Of a DNA stretch of 64,000 nucleotides, positions 3,472 to 62,022 are shown in pieces; position 1 is the stretch's first letter; each line of letters starts with the position of its first letter. The position numbers were made by a program, and so were the translations under genes. The notes under the pieces were generated by a model. That model saw only the letters and a list, made by a program, of their open reading frames with translations. It was not told where the DNA came from and did no database searches. The stretch is from positions 199,145 to 263,144 of the forward strand of contig CAWDUG010000001.1 of assembly GCA_963805435.1 (NCBI GenBank), in the 5' to 3' direction. Source of the DNA: an uncultured Gammaproteobacteria bacterium (GTDB taxonomy: Bacteria > Pseudomonadota > Gammaproteobacteria > Steroidobacterales > Rariloculaceae).

Positions 3472-3691
3472 CGACTGGTCTGATAGGTGGCGGGCGCGTG
3501 CGCCGGGCGATCCGGTCCGCCGCGCCCCTCGCTCTCGACGAAGCAGGGGCACGACTGTATTTTGACCGAGCACGAGCGGCGATGGAACGGAGGTCGGAAG
3601 TGTGGCGAGCACGGAAAAAAACTTCGATTCTCGCGAGCGGAGGCCTCTGGGGCATGCAGGACGGCTCGGGTCGACAGTCGGAGGAGGCCGC

Positions 3692-5080
3692 ATGAGGGGG
3701 TTGTTTGCGACTGGATCGGTCCTCGCTGCGCTGTTGCTCGCCGCCTTGGTCGGTGCTCAGAGCACCCGCAGCGTAGGTCGCGGGGCACCGGTGTTGAAAG
3801 CGCTGCCGCACCCGAAAGGCGGGCCGCCACAGCTGTCGCAATACCTCGCCGAGTACCCGGTCGTCGGCCCGTTTCTCATCAAGCGCGGCGACAAGACGAT
3901 CCGGGTCGGGTCTGCCTGGGACGGTGCCGCTCCACCCGGCGTAACGCCTTTGCCGGTCGACATCTTCACGAGCAAGGATTTCTACAAAGACCGGGCGCTG
4001 TGGAGCGACCCGCGCTACTTCCGGTGCAATAGCAGTCTCGCGGTCGAGCAGCAGCACGGCGCCAGCAACTTCAGCGTTGCCGCGATCCATGGCGGTGCCG
4101 AGACCGCGGCCTGGGGCTACTGCGATCGCGACTATCCGCGCGCCGCGATCGTGAGCCCATATCCCTTCAAGACCGCGCAGGCGCACTACGAGGCGTTGCT
4201 CGCCGAGGCGAAGGCGCATGGCGGCCCCACCCAGCACACGCGCGCCAGCTTGCCGCTCGACTGGGACGGCCGTTACGGCAGCATCTCGATCGAGACCGTG
4301 ATCGGTACCTGGTACGGCATGGCCTGGAACCAGATCTCGACGATTCTTTCGCTTCTCACACCCGAGTATCAGACCCGCATGGTTCAACAGGAGTATCACG
4401 AGGGCACCACGAACGCGGCCCAGTGGCCGGGCATGTATTGCTGGCCCGAAGGCTTCATGCGTCGCTTCCACTTCGCGGGCACGGGCGTGAACCAGATCCT
4501 GGTGGCGCCAAAGCTCGTGCAGATCATGTCGTCGTTGGCAGGCAACTTCGTCACGGACATCAACATCGGCCGCCAATTCAACATGGAGGGTGTGGTGCCG
4601 CGGCTCGGCGCGGACGTGCCGCGCTGGTACGGCGAGACGATCGGCTTCTGGGACGGCGATGCTCTGATCACCTGGACGTCGAACATTCAGGGCTGGGCGT
4701 CGCACGGCGTGTTCGAGTTCTCGAGCAAGATGCAGACAGTCGAGATCTACACTCCGAATCGGGATGCCAGCGGCACGCTCGTGGGCCTGCACCATGAGGC
4801 GGTCTTTTACGACCCCGAAGCGCTCGTCGAGCCGATCCGCATCGTGCGCGACTTCGTCAAGCTGGGCGACTTCGACGAGGGCGAGCCGTATGTGTTCACG
4901 CAGTGCCTTCAGACGATCTACCCGATCAACGGGCTCGCCACACCGGTGGCGCCGCCGAAGGTGATCCCTTACGACGTCCTCGACATGTACAACCGGCCGT
5001 GGGCCCAGATCTGGGAGAAGTACTGGGAAAAGGGCATGAGCCGGCCCGAACCGACGGAGGACATCTTCAAGTTCGACTGA
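3692..5080 (+). CDS. secreted uncharacterised protein, large paralogue A (remote relative of the partner family)
   Basis: Start [24 protein letters not shown] (signal peptide). About 60 percent identical by eye to the 23069..24511 product. Shared blocks: [20 protein letters not shown] and [13 protein letters not shown][14 protein letters not shown]. Confidence 0.75.
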
Positions 5081-5178
5081 ACGCGGCCCGAGAGCACCGG
5101 CGCTTCGCGTCCCGGCAGGATGACGCAGATACGAGATCGGATGTCGCTGCGGTGTGCTCGCCGCGGTATGCTGATGCC

Positions 5179-5697
5179 ATGGCAAATACGGAAACGGCGA
5201 TTCTCGCGGGCGGGTGTTTCTGGGGCATGCAGGACCTGATCCGCAAGCTACCGGGCGTCGTATCGACGCGCGTCGGCTACAGCGGCGGCGACGTGCAGTA
5301 CGCCACGTACCGCAACCATGGCACGCACGCCGAGGCGATCGAAATCGTTTTCGATCCGTTGAAGACCTCGTACCGCGACTTGCTCGAGTTTTTCTTCCAG
5401 ATTCACGACCCCACGACGAAGAACCGCCAGGGCAACGACACGGGTGCGTCGTATCGTTCCGGCATCTACTATCTTTCCGAAGAGCAGCGCGCCGTGGCTG
5501 AGGACACGATCGCCGACGTCGACGCGTCGAAGCTTTGGCCCGGACGTGTGGTGACCGAAGTGAAGCCCGCGGGGCCGTTCTGGGAGGCCGAGCCCGAGCA
5601 TCAGGATTATCTGCTGCGTTACCCCGGTGGCTACACGTGCCATTTTCCGCGCCCGAACTGGCGGCTGCCGCGCCGTGCCAGCGCGAAGACGGCGTGA
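5179..5697 (+). CDS. msrA: peptide-methionine (S)-S-oxide reductase MsrA
   Basis: [19 protein letters not shown]... contains the GCFWG active-site motif. Full-length collinearity with MsrA. Confidence 0.95.
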
Positions 5698-5702
5698 CGC
5701 AC

Positions 5703-6173
5703 ATGAGCACCGAGAAAAGCGAATTGGCGAACGCGTTGCGTTGGTCGGGGGTGATCGAGCTCGCGCAGCACGGCAACGTGCCGCCACCGCGGCGCGTCGA
5801 GAAGAGCGATGCGGAATGGCGTAAGGCGCTCACGAACGAGCAGTACCACGTGGCCCGGGGTAAGGGCACCGAGCGCGCGTTCAGCTCGCAGATGTGCGCG
5901 CTATTCGAACCCGGCCGCTATCACTGTATCTGTTGCGACACACCGCTGTTCGATTCCACCACCAAGTTCGACAGCGGCACCGGCTGGCCGAGCTTCACCG
6001 CGCCGCTGACGCCCGACGTCGTGGCCTACCACCTCGATACCACCCACGGCATGCAGCGCGTCGAGACCACGTGCAACGTGTGCGACGCGCACTTGGGCCA
6101 TGTGTTCCCGGATGGTCCGCGGCCGAGCGGCCTGCGCTTTTGCATCAACGCGGTGTCGCTGAAGAAAGCGTAG
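5703..6173 (+). CDS. msrB: peptide-methionine (R)-S-oxide reductase MsrB
   Basis: CxxC...CxxC zinc motifs (CICCDTPLF, CNVCDAHLGHVF) and RFCINAVSL catalytic Cys segment. Starts 6 nt after the msrA stop. Confidence 0.95.
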   Translation: MSTEKSELANALRWSGVIELAQHGNVPPPRRVEKSDAEWRKALTNEQYHVARGKGTERAFSSQMCALFEPGRYHCICCDTPLFDSTTKFDSGTGWPSFTAPLTPDVVAYHLDTTHGMQRVETTCNVCDAHLGHVFPDGPRPSGLRFCINAVSLKKA

Positions 6174-6193
6174 AAAGACGGTGTCTTCACGCT

Positions 6194-6589
6194 TTACTGC
6201 GTCGTCTCCTGCGCGCCGAACAACTGCTTGCCGTCCGGCAGCGTGACCTTGTCCGCGGCCGCTTTCAGGCTGCCGTCGCGGGCGCGCGAACCCGTGATCG
6301 TGATGGTGGCGCCTTTCGCCAGCGAATCCTGGTTCCAGCCGTAGCGCATGAGGCGGTTCGGGCTGCCGAGCTCGAACGCCCATGCTTCAGCCGCGCCGGT
6401 GTCGTTCTTCACGTCGAGGTAGATCCACGTGTGCGGGTTCATCCACTCGATGCGCGTGACCGTGCCGGTCACCTGCACGGGTTTCGCCGCGTCGAAGATG
6501 GCGGCGAACGAGTGGTGCGCCGCGGCGGGTAAGCTCGCGCCGAGGAGCGCAGCGGTGAGGCCGAGGATCCAAGGGCTCCGACTATTCAT
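6194..6589 (-). CDS. small secreted HH-protein (DUF6152-like), copy 1
   Basis: Signal peptide ending PAAA, followed by HHSFAAIFD. Contains the conserved TGTVTRIEWMNPHTWIYLDV block. Paralogous to four other copies in the window. Confidence 0.8.
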   Translation of the reverse strand: MNSRSPWILGLTAALLGASLPAAAHHSFAAIFDAAKPVQVTGTVTRIEWMNPHTWIYLDVKNDTGAAEAWAFELGSPNRLMRYGWNQDSLAKGATITITGSRARDGSLKAAADKVTLPDGKQLFGAQETTQ

Positions 6590-6680
6590 AAACGCGCTCC
6601 CCCGATTGACCGAGCGCTCCTAGTCTAGTCCGCGGCCGCGAGGCGCGCACGTCCGGTGCCCGGCGGGGCGCCCGCGCTCG

Positions 6681-6709
6681 TTGACTCGCCCGCTGAACGG
6701 ACGTAGGTT
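6681..6709 (+). promoter_or_regulatory. sigma70-like promoter (TTGACT, 17-nt spacer, TAGGTT) inside a conserved 42-nt element, copy 1
   Basis: TTGACT at 6681-6686 and TAGGTT at 6704-6709. 35 of 42 nt are identical to the element at 11154-11195. The -10 hexamer ends 8 nt before the ATG at 6718. Confidence 0.4.
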
Positions 6710-6717
6710 CTTCACCC

Positions 6718-7569
6718 ATGTCGCGCACCGGGGGAATCAAGCTGCTGGCACCGCTTTGCGCGGTGCTTTTCCTGTGCTCCACGCCCCCCGTGTTCGCCCA
6801 GTGGCGCAACGCACCGCCCGAGGCCAACGTGCCGCGCACGCAGAGCGGTGAGGTCGATCTCGAAGCGCCCCCGCCGCGCCACGCCAACGGCCGCATCGAT
6901 CTTCAGGGCGTGTGGATGCCGAACGACAACCGCTACATCCGCGATCTCGCGCTCGACATCGGCGAAACCAAGGTTCCGTACCAGTCCTGGGCCCGACGCC
7001 TGACCGACGAGCGCAAGGACGGCTCGCATTCGCGTGAGGACCCGGATGCGCATTGCCTGCCGCAAGGCGTGCCGAAGATCGACTACGTGTCGTACCCGTG
7101 GAAGCTCGTCGAGACGCCGACGTCCGTCGTCATGATGTTCGAGACGTTCACGTTCTGGCGGCAGATCTTCACGGACGGCCGCACGGTGGACCCGAGCGCG
7201 AAACCCGCGTGGATGGGCTACTCAACGGGCCGTTGGGAGGGCGATACGCTCGTCGTCGAGACCACGGGTTTCAACGGCAAGCTCTGGCTCGACCAGATCG
7301 GTCACCCGACCACGGACCGCCTGCACGTGACCGAGCGCTTCACGCGGACGCACTACGGCCATATGCGCATCGACGTGACGATCGACGACCCGGGCGCCTA
7401 CACGGCGCCATGGTCCGCCTCGCAAGTCGTGCACTTGCGGCCGACGTGGGAGCCCCTCGAGTTCATCTGCGAAGAAAACAACCGGGATATGGAGAACCTG
7501 CCCGGCGACGCCTCGCTGGTCGGGGTCACGAACATCGAGGCTGCGCGGCGGAAGGGCTATCTCAAGTAG
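6718..7569 (+). CDS. secreted two-Cys partner protein, copy 1
   Basis: Signal peptide ...PPVFAQ. Family motifs present: IDLQGVW, CLPQGVP, GRWEGDTLVVETTGF, ERFT and the C-terminal FICEENN. Confidence 0.8.
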   Translation: MSRTGGIKLLAPLCAVLFLCSTPPVFAQWRNAPPEANVPRTQSGEVDLEAPPPRHANGRIDLQGVWMPNDNRYIRDLALDIGETKVPYQSWARRLTDERKDGSHSREDPDAHCLPQGVPKIDYVSYPWKLVETPTSVVMMFETFTFWRQIFTDGRTVDPSAKPAWMGYSTGRWEGDTLVVETTGFNGKLWLDQIGHPTTDRLHVTERFTRTHYGHMRIDVTIDDPGAYTAPWSASQVVHLRPTWEPLEFICEENNRDMENLPGDASLVGVTNIEAARRKGYLK

Positions 7570-7579
7570 GGGCCGGCGG

Positions 7580-8002
7580 TTATTCGGTCGCCGGCGCGCC
7601 GGTGCCGGGCGAGGTGATGAACAGCCGCTTGCCGTCCGGCAACGTCACGTCGCGGCCATTGGCGGCGTTCGAGCCGTTGCGGTGGCGGTAGCCGAAGACC
7701 ACGACTTCGGTGCCGGGCGGGATCGAGTCGCGCGTCATGCCGCGGCGCACGAGCGTGTTCGGGCTGCCGGCTTCGATCATCCAGCTCTCGACGGTGCCGT
7801 CGTCGCGCTTGACGTCGAGATGGATGAACGCGTGCGGATTGATCCACTCGACGCGCGTGATCGTTCCCTTGAGCGTGATGGGCTGCTTCGCATCGAACTC
7901 AGTCGAGAAGGCGTGATGCGCACCCGCAGCTCCCACGAGCGTCAGCAAGACGCCGCCGAGCGTCACGCCAAGGATGTTTCTCAGTAGCGCTCTTGCTTTC
8001 AT
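7580..8002 (-). CDS. small secreted HH-protein (DUF6152-like), copy 2
   Basis: MKARALLRNILG...GAAGA followed by HHAFSTEFD, then TRVEWINPHAFIHLDV. Its ATG (8000-8002) overlaps the TGA (7999-8001) of the upstream partner gene. Confidence 0.8.
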   Translation of the reverse strand: MKARALLRNILGVTLGGVLLTLVGAAGAHHAFSTEFDAKQPITLKGTITRVEWINPHAFIHLDVKRDDGTVESWMIEAGSPNTLVRRGMTRDSIPPGTEVVVFGYRHRNGSNAANGRDVTLPDGKRLFITSPGTGAPATE

Positions 8003-8973
8003 CGCTTGCCCTCCGCTGCCTTTCGCTCCTCTTCGCGCATCGCCGACAGGAGCCCTCGCATTCCGTAGTTGCCTTCGTGGCATGCGTACTCGACCATTTG
8101 TCCGCTCTGCGGATGCATGAAGATCTCCACGGTCCAAGGCGTCGTGAACACGGGGTCGTACACGGTCGCGCGATAACGGATCTGATCGGGTGCAGTGCGC
8201 GTGAATTGCTCCACGACGCGAAATTTGTCGCTCACGAGCGAGTCGAGCATTTGCACGCCGTAGTAATGTCGATTCGGTTTCTGGTTGGTCGTCTCGACGA
8301 CGAGCGTGTCGCCTTCCCATTTGCCGCGCGAGTCGCCGACCCATTGCGTGATGCGATTCGGGAAGTGGGCGCGGCCGTCGATCGGCACGATTCGCACCTC
8401 GTGATTCAGCTCGGCCATGATCGTGACGTAGTCCGGCGTTTGCACGATGTAGTAATTGTTGTTGTACGGCTCGGGCAGCATCGGTGCGTGTCCACCGCCG
8501 AAACCGATGCAGCGTTCCGTCAGATAGCGGTCCTCTGGCGTATCGGCCGGGTGCGCGGCGGCGTAGGCCACATCGCGGTCGAACTCGCGCTGCGCCGCGG
8601 CCGTGAACGGCGGCACGCGCCCGCTCTTGGGGTCGACGATCAGCGACGTTCGCCGCGTGGGCACGACGTCGTTGCCGCGGTCCATCCACGCGTCGTTGTA
8701 GGACCCGACGTTGCCGGCCGTCTTGTCCTGCTCGATGTTCTCGTCGCCGCTCTGCGCGGCGAGCCGCCGTTTCACGTACGCCTTGGCTTCCGCCGCCGTG
8801 AAGAACTCCTTGTCCTTGAGCTCGGCCGGGCGCTGCAACGGCGTCAGCGTCGCGTTGGACCAGGTTCCCTGCAGATCCGGGTCGCCCCACGGCGTGCGCG
8901 CCGGTTGTGCGCCGGCGAAAGGGCTCGCAAGTGCCAGCGGCAGCGCGATCATCACGAGCGAGTACGGTCTCAT
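7999..8973 (-). CDS. secreted two-Cys partner protein, copy 2
   Basis: Signal peptide ...FAGAQ. Motifs: PDLQGTW, ERCIGFG, RIVPIDGR, GKWEGDTLVVETT, EQFT and YACHEGN. Confidence 0.8.
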   Translation of the reverse strand: MRPYSLVMIALPLALASPFAGAQPARTPWGDPDLQGTWSNATLTPLQRPAELKDKEFFTAAEAKAYVKRRLAAQSGDENIEQDKTAGNVGSYNDAWMDRGNDVVPTRRTSLIVDPKSGRVPPFTAAAQREFDRDVAYAAAHPADTPEDRYLTERCIGFGGGHAPMLPEPYNNNYYIVQTPDYVTIMAELNHEVRIVPIDGRAHFPNRITQWVGDSRGKWEGDTLVVETTNQKPNRHYYGVQMLDSLVSDKFRVVEQFTRTAPDQIRYRATVYDPVFTTPWTVEIFMHPQSGQMVEYACHEGNYGMRGLLSAMREEERKAAEGKR

Positions 8974-8986
8974 GTCTTTCTCCTCG

Positions 8987-9745
8987 TCACTTCGGCCGCT
9001 TGTACAGATCGCCGTAGAGCAGTTCTTCGGTGAACGGCACGCACTTGAACTCCATCAGATGCGCGTGGCTGTCGGCATTCCTGAACAAGCGAAAGTGCAT
9101 CGACCACGGCCGGGAGAACGTCATCGGGTCCTCGAGCGTGGCCGAATAGTCGATCGCGTCGGGGCCCGCCGGAGTGTAGCGCTCCACCACGTGCAGCGCC
9201 GCGCTCGCGTGATTGCCCGCGCGATCGAGCCAGGCGAGCCCGTTGAAACCGCTCACGTCCACGACGAGCGTATCGCCGTCCCAACGCGCGTTCGACACGC
9301 CCATCCAGCTGTCGATCGCGGAGGGCTCCGGTTTGCCGAGGTTGATGATACGAGCGGTGCCGGCGAACTGATACGCGAAGAGCATGCGGCCATCCGAATG
9401 AAAGATCTGCAGCGGATACGGCATGTAGTTCGCACGCGGTACGCCGGGCATGAAGCATTTGACCTCGGGGTCTTCTTTCCAGCGATTCTCGTAGTTGCGC
9501 CGTTGCTGCTCGGCGGCTGCGGGCAGGTACGGAATTTCGTCGCCGTCGACGATGCCGTAGCCGGGCGGCGTCGCGAGCAGCGCGCCGTACTCGGGCGGGC
9601 CCGCGCTCGCGCCGTGTGTCAGGAGGTTCCAGTTGGCCGTCGTCGTTGCCTGCCACACACCGCTGAAGTTCGGTTTGCCGTTCGCGAGCCGCGGAAGGTC
9701 GCTCGCGCGCGAGCCTTGCGCGTGCGCGTTCGCGGCGAGCAGCAC
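8987..9745 (-). CDS. secreted two-Cys partner protein, copy 3; signal peptide probably disrupted by an indel
   Basis: Motifs: KPNFSGVW, KCFMPGVP, ARWDGDTLVVDVSGF, ERYT and FKCVPF. An ATG at 9778-9780 opens MRSTLAAS in another frame, which would complete a signal peptide (..TLCVLLAANAHAQ) if one indel near ~9755 is corrected. Confidence 0.75.
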   Translation of the reverse strand: MLLAANAHAQGSRASDLPRLANGKPNFSGVWQATTTANWNLLTHGASAGPPEYGALLATPPGYGIVDGDEIPYLPAAAEQQRRNYENRWKEDPEVKCFMPGVPRANYMPYPLQIFHSDGRMLFAYQFAGTARIINLGKPEPSAIDSWMGVSNARWDGDTLVVDVSGFNGLAWLDRAGNHASAALHVVERYTPAGPDAIDYSATLEDPMTFSRPWSMHFRLFRNADSHAHLMEFKCVPFTEELLYGDLYKRPK

Positions 9746-9792
9746 GCAAAGTGTCAGCTAGCAGCAAGTGTCGATCGCATCGTCGGTGTTTC

Positions 9793-11059
9793 TCAGTCGT
9801 GTGCAGGCTCGATTCGCAGAATCGAGCCGTTGGGTGTGAGCTTGGTGCTGCCGGGGCCGGATTGTCCGTCCCTTTCGACCGCCAGATAGAGGTTGCCGTC
9901 CGGACCTTGGCGCACGTCGCGCACGCGCGCGTCGAGCGACACGAGCATCGATTCGCGGCGCTCGAGTTGCGGCGGCGGCTGATCGAACGCGACGCGCAGC
10001 AACTGCTGGCCGCTCAGCGCTCCAATGAAGTAGTGGCCGCGCCAGAGCGGGAACTTATCGCCGGTGTAGATCATGAGGCTCGATGGGCTGATGGCGGGTA
10101 CCCAGAACATCACGGGGTTGTCCATGCCGGGTCGCGACCACGGCTGGTCCGAGGCGAGATGCCCGGTGTAGATCTTGCCGAGCGACACGAGTGGCCAGCC
10201 GTAGTTGTGCCCCGGAACGAGACGGTTCAGCTCGTCGCCACCCATCGGGCCGATCTCGGTAGCCCAGAGCTCGCCGGTTTGCGGATGCCAGGCGAGCCCC
10301 TGCACGTTGCGGTGGCCGTAGGTATAGATCTCGGGCTTGGCGTCCTTGCGGCCGACGAACGGATTGTCCGGGGCTGCGGTGCCGTCGTCGCGCAGCCGCA
10401 GAACCTTGCCGACGTGGGTATTGAGATCCTGCGCGAGCATGCGGTAGCTCGGGTTGTCGGTCGTGTTGCCGGCGTCGCGGTCGCCGACCGTCAGATAGAG
10501 CATCCGGTCGGGCCCAATCTCCAGGCGGCCGGCGGTCGCGCCCGTGCCCCAGGCGTCGGCGACGAACACGTCCTGCACGGCCTCGAGCGACGTGCCGTCG
10601 AACTTACCGCGCGCGAGCGCGATCGTCGTGTCGCCGCCGTCGCGCTGTTTCACGTACGAGAAATACAGCTGTTGGTTGCGCGCGAAATCCGGATGCAGCA
10701 CGACGGAGTTCATGCTGCGCGCATGCAGCGCATCGGCGGGCCAGCCGGCGACCGGTTTCGGCATCGAGCTTCCCGCCGCGCACGATGCGCAGGTCGCCGG
10801 GGAGCTCCGTCACGAGCATGTCGGTGCCGCCCGGCAGAAACGTCAGGTGCCAGGGCCGCACGAGCCCGTAGGCGACGGTGACGACGTGAATCCGCACGAG
10901 CTCGCCCGGTGGGCAGCCGCCGTGCGGCGAGCCGTTCGGCGAACAGGGGCCCGGCGTGTGGGTGTCGAACGTCCAGCTGGCGTTGTCGTCCTGCGCGCGG
11001 ACGAGCGGGGCCGCACACAACGCAGCGGCCGCGAGCATGATCGATCGAACCTGCAGCAT
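9793..11059 (-). pseudogene. PQQ-dependent sugar dehydrogenase (sGDH/YliI type), one frameshift
   Basis: C-terminal ORF 9793..10764 has YTYGHRNVQGLAWHPQTGELWATEIGPMGGDELN and NYGWP blocks typical of soluble aldose/sorbosone dehydrogenases. The N-terminal part (MLQVRSIML...signal...[15 protein letters not shown]) is in another frame, with the junction near ~10759. Confidence 0.8.
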
Positions 11060-11160
11060 CCCCCGCCCCCCGGCTGAGACCAACGTGGCCCGAACGACGA
11101 TAGGGGAGCGTGCGCGGCGGCGTCAAGGACAGCACGGATACCACCCGCGAGAACCGCTCG

Positions 11161-11189
11161 TTGACTCGCTCACCGAAGGGACGTAGGTT
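11161..11189 (+). promoter_or_regulatory. sigma70-like promoter (TTGACT, 17-nt spacer, TAGGTT) inside a conserved 42-nt element, copy 2
   Basis: TTGACT at 11161-11166 and TAGGTT at 11184-11189. Lies upstream of the plus-strand PQQ sugar dehydrogenase operon. Near-identical to the element at 6674-6715. Confidence 0.4.
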
Positions 11190-11242
11190 CTGCAGCGAGC
11201 CGCGCGCCCTCCGGATCGACCGGGTACCAAAAGAACTAGCGA

Positions 11243-12629
11243 TTGACGTACGGGCGCCGTCCTCGACGGGGGGTAATGATGAACGATCGCACGCTACGCT
11301 CGTGGTTTCTGCTGGCGTTACTGGCACTCGCGCAGGGCTGCACGCCGACCGCGCCACCCACTGCAGCCGCGAGCCCGCCCTCGCCGGCAGCGCCCGACCC
11401 GCTCGTGTTCGACACCTGGGTGCCGGGCCCGTGCTCGCCGAACGGTCAGCCGCAAGGCCAGTGCCCGCCGGGAGATCTGTTCCGCGTGCGCCTCGTCCCG
11501 GTGGCCGAAGGGCTCAGGAGCCCGCGCCACATCGCGTTCACGCCGGACGGCGATCTCCTGATCACCGAGCTTGCGGCGCCGGCGGGAGACCCCGGCGGGC
11601 GGCAATCAATCCGTGCAGGGTCAACCTGGCCGCGTGCGTATCGTGCATGCCGGAGTGCTCGCGTCAGAGCCACTCGCGGGTTGGCCCGCGCCGGGCATCA
11701 CGGCCGGCGCGTTGTGGTCGATCGTCGTGCACCCGCAGTTCGCGGCGAACCACCTCGTGTACCTGTACTACGTCAAGAAGCGCGACGGGATGTCGACGCG
11801 CGCGCTCGCGCGCGCGCGCCTCGAGGGCACTTCGCTGCTCGACGTGCAGGAGATCTTCGAAGCCGACGCGTGGATTCCGGGCGGGCCGATGGCGGGCCGC
11901 GCCGTCTTCGGGCCCGACGGCATGATCTATCTGACGGTGAACGATCACGTCGAGCACGACTACAAGAACGGCGGCGGCGAGCCGCTGCTCGCGCAACAGC
12001 TCGACAACGACATCGGCAAGGTCTTGCGTCTGCGCGACGACGGCGGCATTCCGGCCGACAACCCGTTCGTCGGGCGCAAGGGTGCGAAACCCGAGATCTA
12101 TACCTTCGGGCAGCGCAACGTGACGGACTTCGCCTGGCATCCGGAGACGGGCGAGCTCTGGACCACGGAGATCGCGCCCATGGGCGGCGACGAGATCAAC
12201 ATCCTGCACGCCGGGAAGAACTACGGTTGGCCGCTCGTATCGCTCGGCAAGAACTACAACTTGAAAGAGATGAACGACAACCACTGGTACCGGCCGGGCA
12301 TGGAAATGCCCGTCATGTACTGGACGCCCGCGATCAGTCCGTCGACGTTGACGTGGTACACGGGCGACAAGCTCGCGCCGTGGAAGGGGCATCTGTTCGT
12401 CGGCGCGCTGAACGGCCAGACGCTCGTGCGCGTGGCGTTCGATCAGCCCATGCCGCAAGGCGAACGGCGCGATTCGCTGTTCATGTCGCTCGGCCGGCGC
12501 TGGCGCCACGTGGTTCAGGGGCCGGACGGCTATCTGTATGCGCTGACGGAGAAGCGCACGCTCGGTAGCCCTGCGGATCCGAACGACGCGACGAGCGGGG
12601 TCGTTTACCGCATCGAGCCGGCGCAGTAG
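11243..12629 (+). pseudogene. PQQ-dependent sugar dehydrogenase (sGDH/YliI type) lipoprotein, one frameshift
   Basis: N terminus ...LLALLALAQGC has a lipobox; the true start may be the MMNDRT codons at ~11276. The C-terminal ORF 11571..12629 has YTFGQRNVTDFAWHPETGELWTTEIAPMGGDEIN and NYGWP. Frame junction is at ~11600-11625. Paralogue of 9793..11059, including the shared PGPCSPNG-x-P-x-G-x-CPPG segment. Confidence 0.8.
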
Positions 12630-12657
12630 CGTACTCGGCACAGATGGGAGACTGGCA

Positions 12658-13035
12658 GTGACGCGAAATCTTCTGGCCCTCCTTGCGTTCGCGGCGCCCG
12701 CGTTCGGCCATCATTCGGAGACTGCTGAGTTCAATCCCGACACCCCGGTGAAGGTGACCGGCACGATCGTGAAGGTGGAGTGGCTGAATCCTCACGTGTG
12801 GTTCTATGTCGACGTGAAGGACGAGAAAGGCAACGTGACGACGTGGGGATTTGCCGGAGCGCCTCCCGGTTCCCTGATGCGCAGGGGCATCACGAAGGAA
12901 GTCTTGAAGATCGGCTCCGTCGTCAACGTCGAAGGTTCGCGCGCGAGGGACGGCTCGAACAACGCGTCGAGCCGAAGCGTGACGTTCGCCGACGGCAGAA
13001 ACGTGTTCACCGCCACGAACGAGGGTTCGCGATGA
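12658..13035 (+). CDS. small secreted HH-protein (DUF6152-like), copy 3
   Basis: GTG start. Signal ...APAFG followed by HHSETAEFN, then VKVEWLNPHVWFYVDV. Its TGA (13033-13035) overlaps the ATG (13032-13034) of the next gene. Confidence 0.75.
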   Translation: MTRNLLALLAFAAPAFGHHSETAEFNPDTPVKVTGTIVKVEWLNPHVWFYVDVKDEKGNVTTWGFAGAPPGSLMRRGITKEVLKIGSVVNVEGSRARDGSNNASSRSVTFADGRNVFTATNEGSR

Positions 13036-13803
13036 AACGCGTCTGGCCACGGGCGAGCGGTCTTTTGGCGGTCGCTCACGCTCGCTGCGATCGCGATCGC
13101 GAGGGCGCGAGGACGTGCCCCGCATGCCGGACGGCAAACCGGACTTTTCTGGTATCTACACGCAGCCTTCCACGGTGAACGCGACGGGCCCGCGCGGCAA
13201 TCTGATCTTCAACGCGGACAAGATGGCGCCTGTGAAGCCCGGCGCCGAAAGCCTGCTCTACGAGCCGCGCAACGGCGACCCGCGTCACGACGAGCCGCGC
13301 GCGATGTGCCTGCCGGCAGGGTTCCCCGACGGCATGCTGTACATTCTGCCGATTCAGATCGTCCAGAACCCGAACACCATCGTGATCATTCCCGAGCTGC
13401 AGCGCGCGGCGCGGATCATCCCGACCGATGGCCGCCCGCATCAGCGACGGGCATCGAGCCCACGTACTACGGCGATTCGGTAGGGAAGTGGGAAGGCGAC
13501 ACGCTCGTGATCGACAGCGTGAACTTCAAGCGCTGGATCCTGGACGACTACCACTACACCGACCCGACGAAGACGCGCTGGCACAGCGACGCGCTGCACA
13601 CGACCGAACGCTTGAAGCGCGACGGCGACAAGCTCCTCTACCAGATCACGATCGACGATCCGAAGATCTTCACGAAGCCGTTCTCGCAGGATTTCGTGCT
13701 GACGTTGCGCCGTGACTGGGAGCAGCTCGGCCTTCTCGAGTACGTGTGCGAGGAGAACAATCGCTGCGCGGGCGGGCACTGCCGCGCCTCGGACGCGCAG
13801 TAG
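13032..13803 (+). pseudogene. secreted two-Cys partner protein, copy 4, about three frameshifts
   Basis: MKRVWPRASGLLAV (frame 1), LTLAAIAIARA (frame 2) and VPRMPDGKPDFSGIY...CLPAGFP...RIIPTDGRPH (ORF 13115..13483), then GKWEGDTLVIDSVNF...ERL...YVCEENN (ORF 13306..13803). Junctions near ~13072, ~13108 and ~13440. Confidence 0.7.
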
Positions 13804-13971
13804 CGTATCGAGCCCGCCGCGTGGGGCTCTTGGGTCGAGTCAAGCGGCCGGGGGTTGCCGTGTGCTGCCACCAGGGGCGGCGCTCGTATATGAACTCTCG
13901 TGAAGTGGGGTTCGTTTTCGGCGCGCGCCTGCTATCGTTAGAGGTCACCGCGCTCGAGTAGCCCACGAACA

Positions 13972-15189
13972 ATGAGAACAAGGACGCTCGCCTCGTTACC
14001 CATTTTCCTCGCCGTGCTGTGCACGGCGTGCAGCAAGCCCGCGCCGCCCGCGCCCGCACCGCCGACGGTGGAAGTGGGAACACCCCTGTCCCAGCGCGTC
14101 GCGGGTTGGGACGACTATTCCGGCCGCTTCGAGCCGGTGGACTGCCGTCGAGGTGCGGCCGCGCGTCTCGGGCGCGATCCAGTCGGTGCAACTTTCAGGA
14201 CGGCCAGCGTGGTGCAAGAAGGGCGACCTGCTGTTCGTCATCGACCCGCGGCCCTACGCCGCGCGATCTCGCCCAGGCGAAGGCGCAGGTGGCGGGCGCG
14301 CGGGCGCAGCTCGCCAACGCGGACGCGGAGCTGAAGCGCGCCGAGGCGCTGGTCGGGAAACGAGCTCGTCAGCGAGGCGCGAGGCCGAGGTGCGCATGGC
14401 CGCGCAGCTCAAGGCCGCCGCAGAGCTCGCCGCCGCCGAGGCGTCGGTGCAGACGAAGGAGCTGAACCTCTCGTTCACGCGCGTGACGGCGCCGCTCGCG
14501 GGCCGCGCGTCGTACCGGCGCCTGGCGCCGGGCAACATCGTGACGGCCGACACGACGGTGCTGACCACGATCGTCTCCGAGGATCCGATCCGCTTCGTGT
14601 TCGATGCGCCCGAGTCCGCGCTGCTGAAGTACAAGCGCGAGGCCGACGGCGGGCGTGCGGAGTCGCGTGGACATCCGGTTGCAGGACGAGACCGAGTATC
14701 GCTGGAAGGGCCGCCTCGATTTCCTCGACAACGCGCTCGACCGCAGCTCGGGCACGATCCGCGCTGCGCGCCGTCGTCGACAATCCCGACGGGTTCATCT
14801 CACCGGGCATGTTCGGCCAGCTGCGGCTGTACGCATCCGAGCCCTTCGACGCGTTGCTCGTCCCGGATCAGGCCATCGTCACCGACCAGACGCGCCAGGT
14901 CGTGTACGTGGTGAACGCCGAAGGCGTGGTCGCGCCAGAAGGTGGTGGAGCCCGGGCAGCCTCATGGACGGCCTGCGCGTGGTCCGCGAGCGGCCTCGAC
15001 GCCGCAGGACCGCGTGGTCATCAGCGGCGTGCAGCGCGCGCGCCCGGGCCGCAAGGTGACGGTGAACGAAAGCCACGGTGACGGCGTTCCCCACCGGCGT
15101 GTCGCGCGGCGAGAACAGCACGCTGTCGCTGCCCGAGCGCGCCGGCACCGGCGCAGCCCGGGCCGCGCCCCCAGCGCGGCGGCCGCTAG
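13972..15189 (+). pseudogene. RND efflux membrane fusion (periplasmic adaptor) lipoprotein, six or more frameshifts
   Basis: Lipobox LAVLCTAC. Collinear AcrA/MexA-like blocks are spread over all three frames: EVRPRVSGAIQSV, GDLLFVIDPRPY, AQAKAQVAGARAQLANADAELKRAEAL, ELNLSFTRVTAPLAGR, IRFVFDAPES, MFGQLRLY...ALLVPDQAIVTDQ and VVISGVQRARPG. The 3' end is uncertain. Confidence 0.7.
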
Positions 15190-15199
15190 AGCGTCGCGC

Positions 15200-18100
15200 A
15201 TGCGCCTCTCGCACTTCTTCATCGACCGGCCGATCTTCGCGGCCGCGGTGTCGGTGGTCATCACGCTGACCGGGCGTCATCTCGTACCTCACGCTGCCGG
15301 TCGACCAGTATCCGAACATCGCGCCGCCCACGGTGTCGGTCAACGCGCTGTATCCGGGCGCCACGGCCGAGGAGATCGCGGACACGGTGGCCGCGCCGCT
15401 CGAGCAGCAGATCAACGGCATCAGCCGACATGCTGTACATGTCGTCCTCGTCCACGAGCGAGGGGCGCATGACGATCACCGTCACGTTCAAGAACGGCAC
15501 GAACGTCGACATCGCGCAGGTGGACGTGCAGAACCGCATCCAGTCGGTGCTGCCGCAGCTGCCGCAGACCGTGCGCGACCTGGGCATCACGGTGCGCAAG
15601 GGCTCGACCGGACATTCTGCTGATCGTGCACATGTTCGCCACCGATGCGAGCGTGGACCGCAAGTACATCGCGAACTACGCGAACCTGCAGGTGCGCGAG
15701 CGGCTGCTGCGCACGCCGGGCGTGGGCGACGTGAACATGAACGCCGCGCGCGACTACGCCATGCGCGTGTGGATCGATCCGGAGCGCGCGGCCGCGCGCG
15801 ACCTCACCGTGCAGGAAATCGTCGATGCGCTGCGCAACAACAACCTGCAGGTCGCCGGCGGCGCCATCGGCTCGCCGCCGTTCAACGACAACCCCGCCGC
15901 GTACCAGCTGAACATGCGCGCGCAGGGCCGGCTCGAAACGCCGGAGGAATTCGCGGACGCCATCATCAAGCGCGATGCGCAGGGCCGCGTCACGCGCATC
16001 GGCGACGTGGCGCGCGTGGAGCTCGGCGCGCAGAACTACGCGCGTCAACGCGTACAAGAGCCTGGATCCCGCCGTGTCGCTCAGCGTGCAACAGGCGCCG
16101 AACACCAACGCGCTCGAGACGTGGGACAACATCCGCAGCACGATGGAGGAGCTGAAGACCCAGTTCCCGCCGGGCGTGGCCTACGAGATCATCTTCAACC
16201 CCGTGGCGTTCACGCGCGCGGCCGTGGAGGCCGTGCAGGAGACGCTGCTCGAGGCCATGATCCTCGCGGTCATCGTGGTCATGCTGTTCCTGCAGCGCTG
16301 GCGCACGGCCATGATCCCGCTGCTCGCGATTCCCGTGTCGCTGATCGGCACGCTGACGGTCATGTCGGCGTTCGGCTTCTCGCTGAACAACCTGTCGATG
16401 TTCGGGCTCGTGCTGTCGATCGGCATCGTGGTCGACGACGCGATCGTCGTGGTCGAGAACGCGGAGCGGCACATTCGCGCCGGCATGGCGCCGCGCGACG
16501 CCGCGCATCTCACGATGGACGAGTGCGGCGGCGCGCTGATCGGCATCGCGCTCGTGCTCGTGGCCGTGTTCGTGCCCGACGGCGTTCATGGGCGGCATCG
16601 CCGGCGCGTTCTACAAGCAGTTCGCGCTGACGATCGCGTCGGCCACGGTGATCTCGCTGGTCGTGTCGCTCACGCTGTCGCCGGCGCTCGCGGCCGTGAT
16701 CCTGACGCCGCACGATGCCGTGCACCGCGCGCACGGCGCTTCGGTGCGCGGCTGCACGCGCTGGCCGAGCGCGCGAATGGCTGGCTCGAGCGGCTCTCCG
16801 GCCGCTTACGCGCGCCTCACGCGGCGCTGCGCTGCGCCATCGCGCGATGCTGATCGGCGCTGTACGCGCGGACTGGTCGTGCTCACGGCCTGGCGCGTGA
16901 TCGACACGCCGCGCGGCTTCGTGCCCGTCGCAGGACCAGAACGACGTACTGATCCAGATCACGATGCCGCCGGGCACGAGCCTCGCGCGCACCGATGCCC
17001 TCGTGCAGCAGGTGATTCCCGATCATCCTGGGCACGCCCGGCGTGTCGTCGGCCTCCGTGTATGCCGGCATGGGCGGCGGCAGCTTCAGCAACTCCACGA
17101 ACTGCGGGCCAGATCTTCGCGATCTTCGATCCGTTCGAGAAGCGCCTGCCGAAGGGGCAGACGTTGCCGGTCGATCGCGGCCGAGCTGCGCAAGCGGCTG
17201 TCCGCTTTCACGGCCGCCGAGATCCGCGTCGTGAACCCGGCTTCGGTGCGCGGCATGGGCAACGCCGGTGGCTTTCAGCATGATGGTCGAGGACCGCGGC
17301 GGGCTCGGGTTATCGCGCGCTCGAGGACGCGGTGCAGCGGCTCACGGAAGCGGCGCTCGAAGGACCCGGCCATCTCGCAGGCGTTCAGCGACTTCAACAC
17401 GCGCAACCCGACGCTCGATGCCGTGGTGGATCGCGACAAGGCCGAGATGCTCGGCGTGCCGGTGCGCAACATGTTCGGCACGCTGCAGACCTATCTCGCC
17501 GGCACGTACGTCAACAACATCAACATGCTGGGCCACACGTTCCAGGTGATCGCGCAGGGCGACGCCAGCTACCGCCAGGACGCAGGAATGGGTGGGGCAG
17601 CTGAAGACGCGCTCGGCGTCCGGCGCCATGGTGCCGATCAGCGCGATCGCGAAGCTGCAGCCCGCCACCGCGCCGTATCGCGTGGTGCGCTACAACCTGT
17701 ATCCCGCCGCCGACATCCAGGGCGACACGGCCGCCGGCCATTCGTCCGGCGAAGCGATGGCCGCGATGGAGCGCATCGCGCGCGATACGCTGCCGGCCGG
17801 CATGAGCTTCGAGTGGACGGGCATCGCCTACCAGCAGCGCTTGTCCGGCGACGCCGGCGGGCTCGCGTTCGTCGCTCGGCGTGGTGTTCGTGTTCATCTT
17901 CCTCGCGGCGCTGTACGAGAGCCTGACGCTGCCGCTGGCCGTGATCCTGATCGTGCCGATGTGCCTGCTCGCCGCGATCCTCGGCGTGAACCTGCGCGGC
18001 CTCGACAACAACATCCTGACGCAGATCGGCATGGTGGTGCTGATCGGCCTCGCGGCGAAGAACGCGATCCTGATCGTCGAGTTCGCGCGCCAGGGCGAGG

Positions 18101-18390
18101 AGCACGGCTTGAACAGCGTCGACGCCGCGATCGCGGCCGCGAAGACGCGGTTGCGCCCGATCCTGATGACGTCGGCCGCGTTCATCTTCGGCGTGATTCC
18201 GCTCGCGTTCGCCAGCGGCCCCGGCGCGGAGCTGCGCCAGGCGCTCGGCGTGGGCGTGTTCTACGGCATGATCGGCGTGACCGTGTTCGGCCTCGTGTTC
18301 ACGCCGCTGTTCTACGTGCTGAGCCGCAAGCTCGCGCCAGCGCTTCTCGCGCGAGTCGCACGTGCCGCGCGTGCGTGTAGCGGGCGATAA
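15200..18390 (+). pseudogene. RND (HAE1, AcrB/MexB-like) efflux transporter, ten or more frameshifts
   Basis: [25 protein letters not shown] at 15200, then collinear AcrB-like segments that switch frame repeatedly. Examples: [90 protein letters not shown] and LPLAVILIVPMCLLAAILG...LIGLAAKNAILIVEFA. Stop at 18388-18390. Confidence 0.8.
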
Positions 18391-18470
18391 GCCCTCGGGC
18401 GGATCCGGTGGCACGTTGGCCGTTCGGCCGGCGAGCCCCGAGTGAAGTGCGGCGCGAGCGTGCAACGCCG

Positions 18471-19643
18471 ATGCCGCACGTGACGAGTTCCCTGACCGGC
18501 GAGCAAATACTCGCGAACACGCGTGCGCTCGCGCCCGAGATCGCCGCGCGCGCCGCCGAAGCTGCGGAGCTGCGGCGCTTGCCGCGCGACCTGGTCGACA
18601 AGCTCAAAGCCGCGGGCTGCTTTCGCGTGATGTTCCCGAAAGCATGGGGCGGGCCCGAGATGCCGCTGCCGATGCAGCTGCAGATGATCGAGACGCTCGC
18701 GCACGCCGACACGGCCGTCGCGTGGTGCGTGAAGATCGGCAGCGACAGCGGCCTTTTCGCCGCGTGGCTGAAGGAACCCGCCGCGCGCGAGCTCTACACC
18801 GACATCGATTTCGTCACAGCGGGGCAGGCACCGCCAAACGGCCGCGCCACGAAGGTGGATGGCGGCTACCGCGTGACGGGCCGCTGGGGCTTCGGCTCCG
18901 GCTGCACGCACGCCGACGTGATGATCGGCGGCTGCATCGTCGAGAACGCGCCGGCAGGCCCCGGGGGAATTCCTGCGGTCGTTCACGTGCTCGCGCCGGC
19001 CGCCGGATGGCAGATCGAGGACACCTGGTACGCCACGGGTCTCGCCGGCAGCGGCAGTCATCACTACTCCGCAAAAGATCTGTTCGTCCCGGAGCGCCAC
19101 GTCTTCGATCTTTTCGCACCGTCGGGTAGAAGCGAGCCGCTGTATCGATTGCCGATCACGGCGTCGGTATCCGTGCCGATGGCCGGCACGCCGCTCGGTC
19201 TCGCGCGGCGCGCGATCGACGAGCTCGTCGCGCTCGCCGGCAAGAAGATCGTCGCGATTCCGCCGCCGCCGGTGCTGATCAAGAACCTGCCGCGCGTGCG
19301 CCTCGCGGTCGCTCGCGCCGAGAGCCTGCTCGGTGCCGCGCGTGCCTATGTGTACGAGACCGTGAATCGACTGTGGCGCGAAGTCGAGCAGGGTGGTGTG
19401 GCGTCGATGCAGGCGCGTCGCGACGTCGGTCTCGCGCGCATCCATGCACATCGAATGGCCGCCGAGGTCGCCGAGCTGATGTTCGACGCGGCCGGGCCGG
19501 CCGCCGTGTACGCGAGCTCGCCGCTCGATCGGTTGCTGCGCGACGCTGTCACGATCAAGCAGCATCTGCTCTTCAACGACGGCGTGCTCGAGGAGCTCGG
19601 CGCGATGGCGCTCGGCGACGAGGTCGCGACGCGGTTCGTATAG
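18471..19643 (+). CDS. acyl-CoA dehydrogenase family protein (type-2/flavin monooxygenase-like)
   Basis: MPHVTSSLTGEQILANTRALAPEIAARAAEAAELRRLP... Contains the YRVTGRWGFGSGC motif and a C-terminal helical domain typical of ACAD-fold enzymes of the HsaA/DszC-like group. Confidence 0.7.
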   Translation: MPHVTSSLTGEQILANTRALAPEIAARAAEAAELRRLPRDLVDKLKAAGCFRVMFPKAWGGPEMPLPMQLQMIETLAHADTAVAWCVKIGSDSGLFAAWLKEPAARELYTDIDFVTAGQAPPNGRATKVDGGYRVTGRWGFGSGCTHADVMIGGCIVENAPAGPGGIPAVVHVLAPAAGWQIEDTWYATGLAGSGSHHYSAKDLFVPERHVFDLFAPSGRSEPLYRLPITASVSVPMAGTPLGLARRAIDELVALAGKKIVAIPPPPVLIKNLPRVRLAVARAESLLGAARAYVYETVNRLWREVEQGGVASMQARRDVGLARIHAHRMAAEVAELMFDAAGPAAVYASSPLDRLLRDAVTIKQHLLFNDGVLEELGAMALGDEVATRFV

Positions 19644-22371: not shown

Positions 22372-22412
22372 GGGGCTCCCGCAGCATCGACTTTCGTTGC
22401 GGGCTATCTTAG

Positions 22413-22901
<489 letters not shown>

Positions 22902-23068
22902 GCGTGTGAACGTGGCCTCACGCGCGACATTGCGCACGGTCACGAGACCGTGGCTCGAGTCTTGGAGAAACTGGATAGCGTGAGACTCCGCGTTACACGG
23001 CCAACCCGTGGACCGGGGGGTGACGGCCAGCGTACGATGCCCCGCAAGTAATCACTCGGGGAAGATCA

Positions 23069-25379: not shown

Positions 25380-26424
25380 TCAGTGTTCGCCGGCCGTCAG
25401 GTGGCGTCGCGCGGTGGCCGGATCGCAGAGGTACTCCTGCAGCTTGTAGCCGGCGTTCAAGTTGAAGCGCTGCTCGTCCGTCACCGGCTTCGCGAGGTAC
25501 TCGGGGTCCGTCATCGTGAAGTGCAGCGTCAATCCGCGGCCGTCGTCGCTCAGCGTGTAACGCTCGACGGTCGTCTTGCGCTCGCTCGAGTCGACGCCTC
25601 GGCCGTTACCCCAGCGCACGGGCGCGAACTTCGCCGTCTCGATCACGAGCTCGCCGTTCTCGAGCCGGCCGATCGAGTGGCCGAGCGGCGAGGGCGCCAC
25701 GGCGGTCGGATGGGACGCCATGTTCAGATGCACGACGCGCTTCAGCTCGTTGACCTCGTAGTGGATCTCGAGCGTGTCGGCATTCGGCCGCGTGATCTGG
25801 AACGGATACGGGTAGCCCAGGATCTCCGGCATCGTCTGCGGTGAGCAGTCCCACTCGGGGTTGCTGATCGGGGTCGAAGTGATCGAGCTCGGCCTGACCC
25901 TTGGCCGTGACCGGCAGCGTGTTCACGACCACGGTGTCGGGGCGGTTGCGCCCGAGCACGTCGCCCTTGAACTGAATCCGCCACACGCCGGTGAAATCCG
26001 TCGACTTGGCCGCCAATTGCTCCGCGGAGGGCTTTGGTGGGGAGGTGAGTTGGGGGCCGCCCCAGGCCCAGATGTCCTTGCCGTCTCTGATGAACAGGTT
26101 CGCGTAAATGAAGTGCCGCTCGGCGTTCCGATCCGGGTTGCCGCGCGCGACCACGCGGTCGCCCTGCTTCAGCGTGTCGGGCGTCCAGCCGAACCGCATG
26201 AGCACCGGCGTGGAGTTCAGCTCGAACGTCCACTGCTCGACCGGGCCGTCGCCCTTTCTGCCTTCCACCACCGCGTAGGCGTGGGGATTGCGCCACGAGA
26301 ACTCCTTGACCGTACCCGTGATCTCGACCGTGGAGTCGAGATCGAAGTTCGCACGCGAGTGATGGGCGAGGGCGGGAGCTGCGACGAAGGCTGTCGCGAA
26401 TGCTGCAAGGGTGTGGGCACGCAT
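25380..26424 (-). pseudogene. fusion of HH-protein (DUF6152-like) and two-Cys partner domains, one frameshift
   Basis: N-terminal part: MRAHTLAAFATAFVAAPALA, then HHSRANFD...FSWRNPHAYAVVEG. Then TDFTGVW (partner N-terminal motif). After an indel in a C run near ~25853 comes EWDCSPQTMPEILGYPYP...GRLENGELVIETAKF...ERYT...YLCDP (ORF 25380..25832). Confidence 0.75.
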
Positions 26425-37655: not shown

Positions 37656-37657
37656 GG

Positions 37658-40054: not shown

Positions 40055-40096
40055 CGCAACGACGGCGCCCGCGCCAGCAATGTAGCACGGACTTCC

Positions 40097-54690: not shown

Positions 54691-54704
54691 CCAAGGGGAA
54701 GCTC

Positions 54705-61949: not shown

Positions 61950-62022
61950 GCGGTTGTCGATGCTAAGGGATGCGCCGCGCTCGCGCTAACGTTTTCGCAG
62001 CGCCGCGGGCCCCGTGCGCCGG

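Follow-up and report, generated by a model that had tools for sequence, protein, structure and literature searches.

DUF6152 and an uncatalogued protein with a predicted barrel form a conserved two-gene cassette, here beside GSDH-family propellers that lack the catalytic histidine

INTRODUCTION

In soluble glucose dehydrogenase (sGDH), a pyrroloquinoline quinone (PQQ) enzyme, His144 is the catalytic (general-base) residue, and it is conserved in aldose sugar dehydrogenase (Asd) and in the fungal AA12 enzymes (PMC6881789). The histidine-brace copper proteins, which include the lytic polysaccharide monooxygenases (LPMOs), CopC, and YcnI, have been defined elsewhere (PMC10952591), and CusF shows that an oligonucleotide/oligosaccharide-binding (OB) fold can carry a metal site (PMC10656224). 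Here, we compare these systems with a locus in a 64,000-nucleotide stretch of DNA (the window) from an uncultured gammaproteobacterium of the family Rariloculaceae, a soil bacterium (assembly GCA_963805435.1, contig CAWDUG010000001.1, positions 199,145 to 263,144). The window carries two divergent operons in which a propeller gene of the GSDH family is accompanied by genes for two small secreted proteins, one belonging to the Pfam family DUF6152 and the other to an uncatalogued family that we call the partner. An initial annotation had read these operons as a three-component periplasmic system in which PQQ sugar dehydrogenases are coupled to a secreted two-protein module. We found that the robust unit is a two-gene cassette of DUF6152 and partner, not a three-part system.

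RESULTS

DUF6152 and partner genes form a conserved cassette

We examined gene neighborhoods in two sets of loci. The partner-centered set held 80 genome loci, mostly from Acidobacteriota with some from Gammaproteobacteria and Gemmatimonadota, and contained 126 partner genes. The GSDH-centered set held 80 metagenome loci, picked without regard to either small family. A partner gene lay within 300 bp of DUF6152 in 36 of 38 cases in the partner-centered set and in 15 of 17 evaluable cases in the GSDH-centered set. For the GSDH-centered set, the adjacency expected by chance was about 6% or less, at 0.04 to 0.10 cassette genes per kb. Both gene orders occur, and 30 of the 44 same-strand junctions overlap or are no longer than 30 nucleotides (nt), often as ATGA or GTGA. 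The pair is also present in cultured organisms: on RefSeq plasmids of Novosphingobium humi and Croceibacterium atlanticum, a gene annotated as "DUF6152 family protein" adjoins a "hypothetical" partner gene. The DUF6152 proteins of N. humi G5 and C. atlanticum are WP_273620494.1 and WP_046903031.1.

The two families are fused as well. We found seven single open reading frames (ORFs), one in the window and six elsewhere, that encode both. Examples elsewhere are the L082 and L049 types. DUF6152 is always N-terminal in these fusions, and the partner domain lacks a separate signal peptide. This order is what would be expected if the N-terminal histidine of DUF6152 must stay free. Together, the tight linkage and the fusions support a partnership between DUF6152 and partner that is either physical or stepwise. 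Thus, the secreted two-protein module of the initial annotation is genuine and conserved.

The window carries five cassettes, two of them in divergent operons

ORF listing, six-frame motif scans, and hidden Markov model (HMM) searches placed five DUF6152 copies and six partner copies in the window. The copies, the two propeller genes, and the region between the operons are as follows. The mature N termini are those predicted after signal peptide cleavage.

Minus-strand operon
9793-11059, minus strand: GSDH-family six-bladed beta-propeller A, sGDH/YliI-like, secreted (Pfam PF07995, E = 1.6e-93)
8987-9757, minus strand, starting at about 9757: partner copy, a predicted calycin-like barrel (partner HMM, E = 8e-78)
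7999-8973, minus strand: partner copy of 324 amino acids (aa) with a signal peptide (ORF; partner HMM, E = 7e-71)
7580-8002, minus strand: DUF6152 protein with a predicted OB fold, mature N terminus HHAF (Pfam PF19649, E = 7.8e-34; AlphaFold2 [AF2]; Foldseek)

Between the operons
11060-11275: intergenic region, about 216 bp long, from which the two operons diverge

Plus-strand operon
11276 (approximate) to 12629, plus strand: GSDH-family beta-propeller B (GSDH HMM match)
12658-13035, plus strand: DUF6152, mature N terminus HHSE (Pfam, E = 1.1e-24)
13032-13803, plus strand: partner copy (partner HMM)

Other copies
6194-6589, minus strand: DUF6152, mature N terminus HHSF, divergent from the next gene (Pfam, E = 8.3e-33)
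6718-7569, plus strand: partner copy of 283 aa (ORF)
25380-26424, minus strand: fused ORF with an N-terminal DUF6152 (mature N terminus HHSR) and a partner domain without its own signal peptide
35068-35469, minus strand: DUF6152, mature N terminus HHSF
34244-35071, minus strand: divergent partner copy whose GTG start overlaps the DUF6152 stop as GTGA (partner HMM, E = 9e-14)

The content, order, and orientation of both operons and of the divergent pair at 6194-7569 are as initially annotated, and so is the count of five and six copies, which takes in the additional pairs at 26424 to 25380 and 35469 to 34244. The junctions also agree. The DUF6152 start overlaps the stop codon of the upstream partner gene as ATGA at 7999-8002 in the minus operon; in the plus operon, a 28-nt gap separates propeller B from DUF6152, and an ATGA at 13032-13035 joins DUF6152 to the partner. 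The single intergenic region of about 200 bp described at the divergence measures about 216 bp. Gaps of 12 to 13 nt had been reported for the minus operon; there is a clean 13-nt gap at 8973/8987, but no other junction shows one cleanly. A promoter and terminator scan of 6000-14200 returned nothing above chance, and within 11060-11275 the minus strand has a single weak match of sigma-70 type, likewise not above chance.

The operons had been described as mirror images. The two GSDH genes are indeed divergent paralogues that form DNA inverted repeats (9886-10628 against 11794-12539, 71 to 78%), but the mirror is not exact: after the propeller gene, the minus operon runs partner, partner, DUF6152 and the plus operon runs DUF6152, partner. 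The intact orthologues of the two propellers in the related locus L005 share 52% protein identity, the window partner copies are about 33% identical among themselves, and the DUF6152 copies are 31 to 47% identical. The low identities and the differing gene order indicate that the operons are old paralogues rather than a recent mirror duplication. The divergent DUF6152/partner pair of 6194-7569 also occurs in loci L002 to L005. Directly beside it in the window lie msrA and msrB (5100-6173, plus strand), and the same adjacency is seen in L005 and L007.

The frame breaks in the window are probably assembly errors

Several of these ORFs are not intact. The reading frame shifts in each of the two GSDH genes, in the partner copy at 13032-13803, and at the 5' end of the copy at 8987-9757. 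We compared the window with L005, a contig of a related metagenome-assembled genome (GCA_039933105.1) that is syntenic and whose gene content and order match, with every gene intact. In that alignment, every difference that breaks a frame within a gene is one inserted base on the window side; these lie near 13452, 13440, 13113, 13071, 11599, 10761, and 9757-9790. The insertion near 10761 breaks propeller A, and that near 11599 breaks propeller B. The partner at 13032-13803 needs about four 1-nt corrections, and in the partner at 8987-9757, the indels at 9757-9790 obscure the signal peptide and the rest of the 5' end. The fused ORF at 25380-26424 has one frameshift, near 25922. The intact L005 orthologues are 450 aa (propeller B), 265 aa (partner 8987), and 253 aa (partner 13032).

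Because L005 is intact and all of the breaks are 1-base insertions in the window, we read them as probable assembly errors, and the pattern suggests an unpolished long-read assembly. If the frameshifts were genuine, the locus would consist of decaying pseudogenes, and at least seven 1-nt insertions do disrupt four genes. However, all of the insertions belong to the window when it is compared with the intact orthologues of both L005 and L088, the GC content at third codon positions (GC3) remains high over the breaks, and unrelated genes are broken in the same way, such as the resistance-nodulation-division (RND) pump at 14 to 19 kb. We therefore regard pseudogene decay as extremely improbable. 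Genes split by frame changes are common at 13972-19000, where an RND efflux adaptor and pump lie downstream of the plus operon, and window-wide.

Mature DUF6152 is predicted to begin with His-His

The first small component, for which the initial annotation could name no function and which it called the HH-protein, is DUF6152 (PF19649; E = 1e-24 to 1e-34). Four copies score 87 to 116 bits against a gathering cutoff of 27, and the fifth matches a family HMM built in this analysis (E = 4e-28). The protein has about 105 residues. Of 53 homologues, drawn from several phyla, 52 have a His-His pair 23 to 24 residues upstream of a WxNPH motif. In the same 52 sequences, the pair immediately follows a signal-peptidase-type site, with Ala or Gly at position -1, as predicted from sequence. 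Thus, mature DUF6152 would start with His-His. His57, the histidine of WxNPH, is invariant and lies at a fixed spacing from the pair. The invariant N-terminal His-His makes metal binding by DUF6152 plausible.

An AF2 model built from 39 sequences has an OB fold of three strands, a helix, and two strands, with a predicted local distance difference test (pLDDT) score of 81. Foldseek matched the model to PriB, SSB, and the anticodon-binding domain of LysRS, a resemblance at the level of the fold and not to a functional homologue. Our literature search found no paper on DUF6152.

The partner is a large uncatalogued family with a predicted calycin-like barrel

The second small component had no match in Pfam (even at E ≤ 10), in NCBIfam, or among Protein Data Bank sequences, so that it too stays without a nameable function, as initially annotated. 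All source annotations that we encountered for partners read "hypothetical protein." A profile search at E ≤ 1e-3 gathered 20,429 clusters (50% identity); 10,602 of them had E < 1e-10.

We used the partner at 6718-7569 as the reference sequence for the alignment (A1) and for an AF2 model. In the model (pLDDT 72), a helical N-terminal region precedes an antiparallel barrel of eight strands. Foldseek gave weak matches to CRBP (E = 6e-4), FABP, and streptavidin/avidin-type proteins, with a probability near 1 and template modeling (TM) scores of 0.26 to 0.32 on the query and 0.5 to 0.6 on the target. As for DUF6152, these matches concern the fold, and no functional homologue was among them. The motifs quoted in the initial annotation are genuine and are conserved across 167 homologues. 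C113 and C251 are conserved in 100% and 98% of these, and in the model the pair would form a disulfide that closes the calycin-like barrel. G64 and W66 of the GxW motif are conserved at 98% and 92%. R148, D153, R155, D176, E206, R207, R210, D224, and E248 are conserved at about 84 to 99%. D61, G117, D153-G154-R155, and G171-x-W173-x-G175-D176-T-L-V-V are also kept. When partners with and without an adjacent DUF6152 gene were compared, the only differences lay in an N-terminal subfamily segment, and there was no diagnostic metal-ligand column.

The domain also occurs in other architectures. It is fused to an N-terminal cytochrome c domain in P0413. Across this and similar proteins (P0381, P0416/P0435/P0456, P0317), we observed C-terminal OmpA (OmpA_C) and N-terminal CarboxypepD_reg domains. 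Many proteins of about 355 aa carry a C-terminal DUF3471, and tandem doubles of 480 to 530 aa occur. Two paralogous secreted proteins of the window (3602-5080 and 23024-24508, both plus strand; 492 and 495 aa, about 57% identical) have no Pfam match and weakly resemble the partner barrel in its C-terminal half (E = 1e-4). Their orthologues are present in L005 and L007.

Both propellers lack the catalytic histidine

Both window propellers match the GSDH HMM. The fragment of propeller A at 9793-10764 alone scores 314 bits against PF07995, whose gathering cutoff is 25. The closest solved structures are 7cdy (E = 5e-62) and Escherichia coli YliI (2g8s). The name PQQ sugar dehydrogenase is thus sound at the family level (PF07995), but the catalytic His144 is absent from both propellers. 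In an alignment to five solved enzymes, including 7cdy, 2g8s, and 5min, the His144 position is Ala in propeller A and Pro in propeller B. Neither has a histidine within 10 residues of it, and all five solved enzymes have the histidine. The EHGP/EQGP of the solved enzymes reads EIGP/EIAP in the window. Therefore, the sugar dehydrogenase label is not a safe statement of function here.

The PQQ-binding motifs HRN (R228/N229) and RxRD (R406/R408) are kept. Propeller A has GHRNVQG for the first and, for the second, ARVRDVRQGPDG, which aligns with the YliI segment RIRDVRTGPDG. Propeller B retains R228 and N229, but reads Q-R-N. The loss of His144 is common in this clade, since 72 of 79 metagenome GSDH relatives lack it, with Asn as the commonest replacement. 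A cassette was nearby in 0 of 7 His-containing loci and in 25 of 72 His-less loci, a difference that is only suggestive given short flanks and a hand-calculated P value of about 0.06.

The N termini of the propellers have features of their own. Both have an extension with a two-Cys loop, GPCSPNGxPxGxCPPGE (10900-11000 and 11400-11480), that is absent from solved sGDH and Asd. Propeller A has an ordinary signal peptide. Propeller B has a lipoprotein-like LAQGC motif (11276-11400) followed by a Pro/Ala/Thr-rich linker, also present in its L005 orthologue, and so one propeller copy may be membrane tethered. At the far end of the window (63060-63998, minus strand) lies the C-terminal part of an eight-bladed PQQ dehydrogenase-cytochrome c fusion (quinohaemoprotein), which indicates that the organism probably uses PQQ. 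A chemoproteomics paper on PQQ (PMC13088180) contained nothing bearing on these proteins.

Coupling between propeller and cassette is facultative

The cassette is the commonest neighbor of this GSDH clade, found in 13 flanks, compared with 7 for eight-bladed PQQ dehydrogenases and 4 for MacB. A cassette gene was immediately adjacent in 13 of the 70 GSDH loci with usable flanks, or 8 of 65 after removal of near-orthologues, and was present anywhere in the flank in 26 of 80. Syntenic, intact propeller-cassette operons occur in L005 and L088. In the acidobacterial (Bryobacteraceae) loci L024, L036, and L039, the GSDH gene is followed by a partner gene on the same strand, and in L164 a propeller gene is followed by a fused DUF6152-partner ORF. 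Tight same-strand arrangements, with differing gene orders, are present in at least four lineages: the window (twice), the Bryobacteraceae loci, L128, and L164.

The initial annotation proposed a three-component periplasmic system and speculated that the DUF6152 protein is an electron acceptor or metal carrier. As a dedicated system, this would have the PQQ sugar dehydrogenase hand its electrons to DUF6152, a redox or metal carrier, with the partner as a third subunit. The two paralogous operons with tight junctions, which are conserved in L005, L007, and L088, are consistent with this, as are the same-strand arrangements of a GSDH gene and then a partner or fusion (L024, L036, L039, L128, and L164), the cytochrome c domain of P0413, and the PQQ-binding Arg/Asn of the propellers. 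However, three of the five window cassettes have no GSDH gene, and a GSDH gene adjoins 3 of the 126 partner genes elsewhere and is missing beside the other 123. Conversely, 57 of the 70 GSDH loci have no adjacent cassette. The propellers also lack the His144 needed for sugar oxidation by sGDH (PMC6881789). We also asked whether cytochrome c replaces the cassette in cassette-free GSDH loci; neighbors with CxxCH were rare there, with no complementary pattern. A dedicated three-component system is, in our estimation, quite unlikely, and the idea does not hold as a general rule. The initial annotation had suggested scoring colocalization across other genomes. By this score the DUF6152-partner pairing stood, and the GSDH link was weak when viewed from the cassette and stronger when viewed from the propeller.

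It could also be that the adjacency is incidental, with an abundant, mobile cassette hitchhiking locally in some lineages and sharing no function with the propeller. Cassette density is high (11 genes in the 64-kb window and 0.04 to 0.10 per kb in other flanks), tandem cassette arrays occur in L078 and L083, the neighbors of the cassette are heterogeneous, and many of the non-orthologous GSDH cases are convergent. However, same-strand GSDH junctions of 8 to 47 nt persist in loci whose proteins are as little as 85% identical, and the same GSDH subclade stands beside the cassette in Acidobacteriota and Gammaproteobacteria in differing gene orders. Furthermore, in 13 to 15 of the 26 loci with a cassette gene, depending on the flank filter, that gene is immediately adjacent, and the cassette ranks first among GSDH neighbors. 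We consider incidental adjacency unlikely, and we conclude that the coupling of propeller and cassette is real but facultative.

The neighbors of the cassette are heterogeneous

A Pfam census of 82 same-strand proteins neighboring cassettes returned 109 families, none of them dominant, and no constant third gene. This diversity also argues against a dedicated three-component system. The commonest neighbors were proteins with a metallo-beta-lactamase fold (4), TonB receptors (3), zinc alcohol dehydrogenases (3), and GSDH proteins (2).

The receptors raise the possibility that the cassette encodes a binding pair for nutrient or metal scavenging at the envelope, working with TonB-dependent receptors, and that the propeller link is secondary. 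Such receptors lie directly beside cassettes in L088 (4225-6402) and in C. atlanticum (L169, 5593-8052). In addition, partner domains are fused to OmpA_C and to CarboxypepD_reg, an N-terminal domain typical of these receptors, and the calycin and OB folds are both typical of binding modules. However, the receptors are a small minority of the cassette neighbors, none is adjacent to the five window cassettes, and no transporter or regulator is consistently linked. A scavenging role as the primary function seems rather improbable. The L088 locus is a close relative of the window locus.

Other genes of the window were noted near cassettes or apart from them. A DUF6644-like gene lies at 61449-61985 (minus strand), and two DUF6644 genes adjoin the cassette on the N. 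humi plasmid (L168, 2110-3085); DUF6644 may be a recurrent neighbor. A pair of uncharacterized genes, encoding a DUF1592/DUF1588/DUF1587/DUF1585/DUF1595 protein and a DUF1552 (HXXSHH) protein, occurs twice (36345-40096, minus strand, and 52262-56046, plus strand), the first copy on the same strand as the fifth cassette and just upstream of it. At 19666-22413 (minus strand) lies a gene for a Ser/Thr protein kinase of 916 aa that has PD40/WD40-like beta-propeller repeats at its C terminus.

DISCUSSION

Our best guess is that the cassette encodes a periplasmic metal- or ligand-handling complex that is accessory to various enzymes. DUF6152 and partner, both secreted, would probably form a complex. 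The free N-terminal histidine of DUF6152 and a second histidine, His57, would make up a site for copper, nickel, or zinc that is amino terminal or resembles a histidine brace, and the partner barrel may bind a ligand that is small and polar or anionic. The cassette would be modular and, with five copies in 64 kb, heavily duplicated, attaching to different periplasmic or outer membrane functions. In the two window operons, the pair, presumably cotranscribed with the propeller gene, would serve the propeller in metal, cofactor, or redox handling. Because these propellers keep the PQQ-binding Arg/Asn but lack the catalytic histidine, the cassette is probably their accessory. Taken as a whole, the reading of a two-gene cassette whose two secreted products act together as an accessory to various functions has, in our judgment, a probability of about 50%.

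Several observations weigh against this reading. DUF6152 is a neighbor of 39 of the 126 partner genes in the partner-centered set, and the other 87 have none. The barrel can thus act without DUF6152, whereas DUF6152 appears to need the barrel. The enrichment of the cassette beside GSDH is modest, perhaps 2- to 5-fold over the high cassette density of the flanks, a background that is biased upward. Six non-orthologous GSDH-cassette cases are convergent and not cotranscribed. Genes for copper or metal homeostasis were not enriched in the census of 82 neighbors. The partner has no invariant histidine. In the DUF6152 model, pLDDT falls below 50 over the N-terminal segment, which bears on the geometry of His-His and His57. 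One fused homologue (L095, 5921-7060) reads QH for HH and WxNPY for WxNPH and is thus a natural variant without the conserved histidines. Finally, what the analysis shows is the gene anatomy, the linkage, the fusions, the predicted folds, and the missing histidine; that the two proteins form a complex, bind a metal and a ligand, and have a role with the propeller is inferred.

A more specific version holds that DUF6152 is a new class of OB-fold metalloprotein with an N-terminal histidine which, docked on the barrel, supplies a histidine or metal in trans or accepts electrons from the propeller. We regard this version as a long shot. If it were true, a metalloprotein working with a His-less propeller would amount to a periplasmic redox system not known before, one that is widespread among soil Acidobacteriota and Proteobacteria. 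A cassette that acts as a metal or redox accessory would, more generally, bear on the physiological partners of soluble GSDH-type propellers.

The families themselves merit attention. The partner belongs to a very large family (about 20,000 clusters at 50% identity) that has no name, model, or structure. DUF6152 is catalogued solely as a domain of unknown function, and the partner is not catalogued at all. An obligate and sometimes fused pair, with a free His-His predicted across phyla, is a concrete starting point, and it can be tested in cultured Novosphingobium and Croceibacterium. Routine annotation of this clade as PQQ sugar dehydrogenases is probably misleading, because most relatives of the two propellers are without the catalytic histidine.

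We found no described system that matches the way in which the two families pair and fuse or the His-His conserved at the N terminus. The propellers share family (PF07995), six-bladed propeller, secretion, and HRN/RxRD motifs with the sGDH of Acinetobacter calcoaceticus and the YliI/Asd of E. coli (7cdy, 2g8s, and 1c9u). In contrast to these enzymes, they have Ala or Pro for His144 and the two-Cys loop extension at the N terminus, and their presumed cotranscription with DUF6152 and partner genes is seen in no characterized member.

DUF6152 resembles the histidine-brace and other N-terminal-histidine copper proteins in starting with a conserved histidine after predicted cleavage and in having a second invariant histidine (in WxNPH). 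However, its predicted fold is an OB fold rather than an Ig-like or cupredoxin-like sandwich, it has two histidines in a row, and there is no sequence relationship. Like the CusF/SilF metallochaperones and the BOF proteins (YgiW/YdeI), it would be a small secreted OB-fold protein of the Gram-negative envelope. A Pfam search at E ≤ 10 matched neither CusF nor BOF, and the only other OB match was a weak one to tRNA_anti-codon (E = 0.016). Unlike those proteins, DUF6152 conserves His-His and NPH instead of Met/Trp/His, and it has an obligate genomic partner.

The partner may resemble the calycins (lipocalins, FABP/CRBP, avidins, and bacterial Blc) in its predicted eight-stranded barrel, with a GxW on the first strand and conserved Arg residues later, although it matches no sequence family and no Pfam lipocalin model. 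It differs from them in three respects. It has an additional N-terminal helical region of about 60 residues, its predicted disulfide, between invariant cysteines, would link the CxPxG loop to the C-terminal CxExN, and its conserved cluster is polar and charged where the calycins have a hydrophobic cavity.

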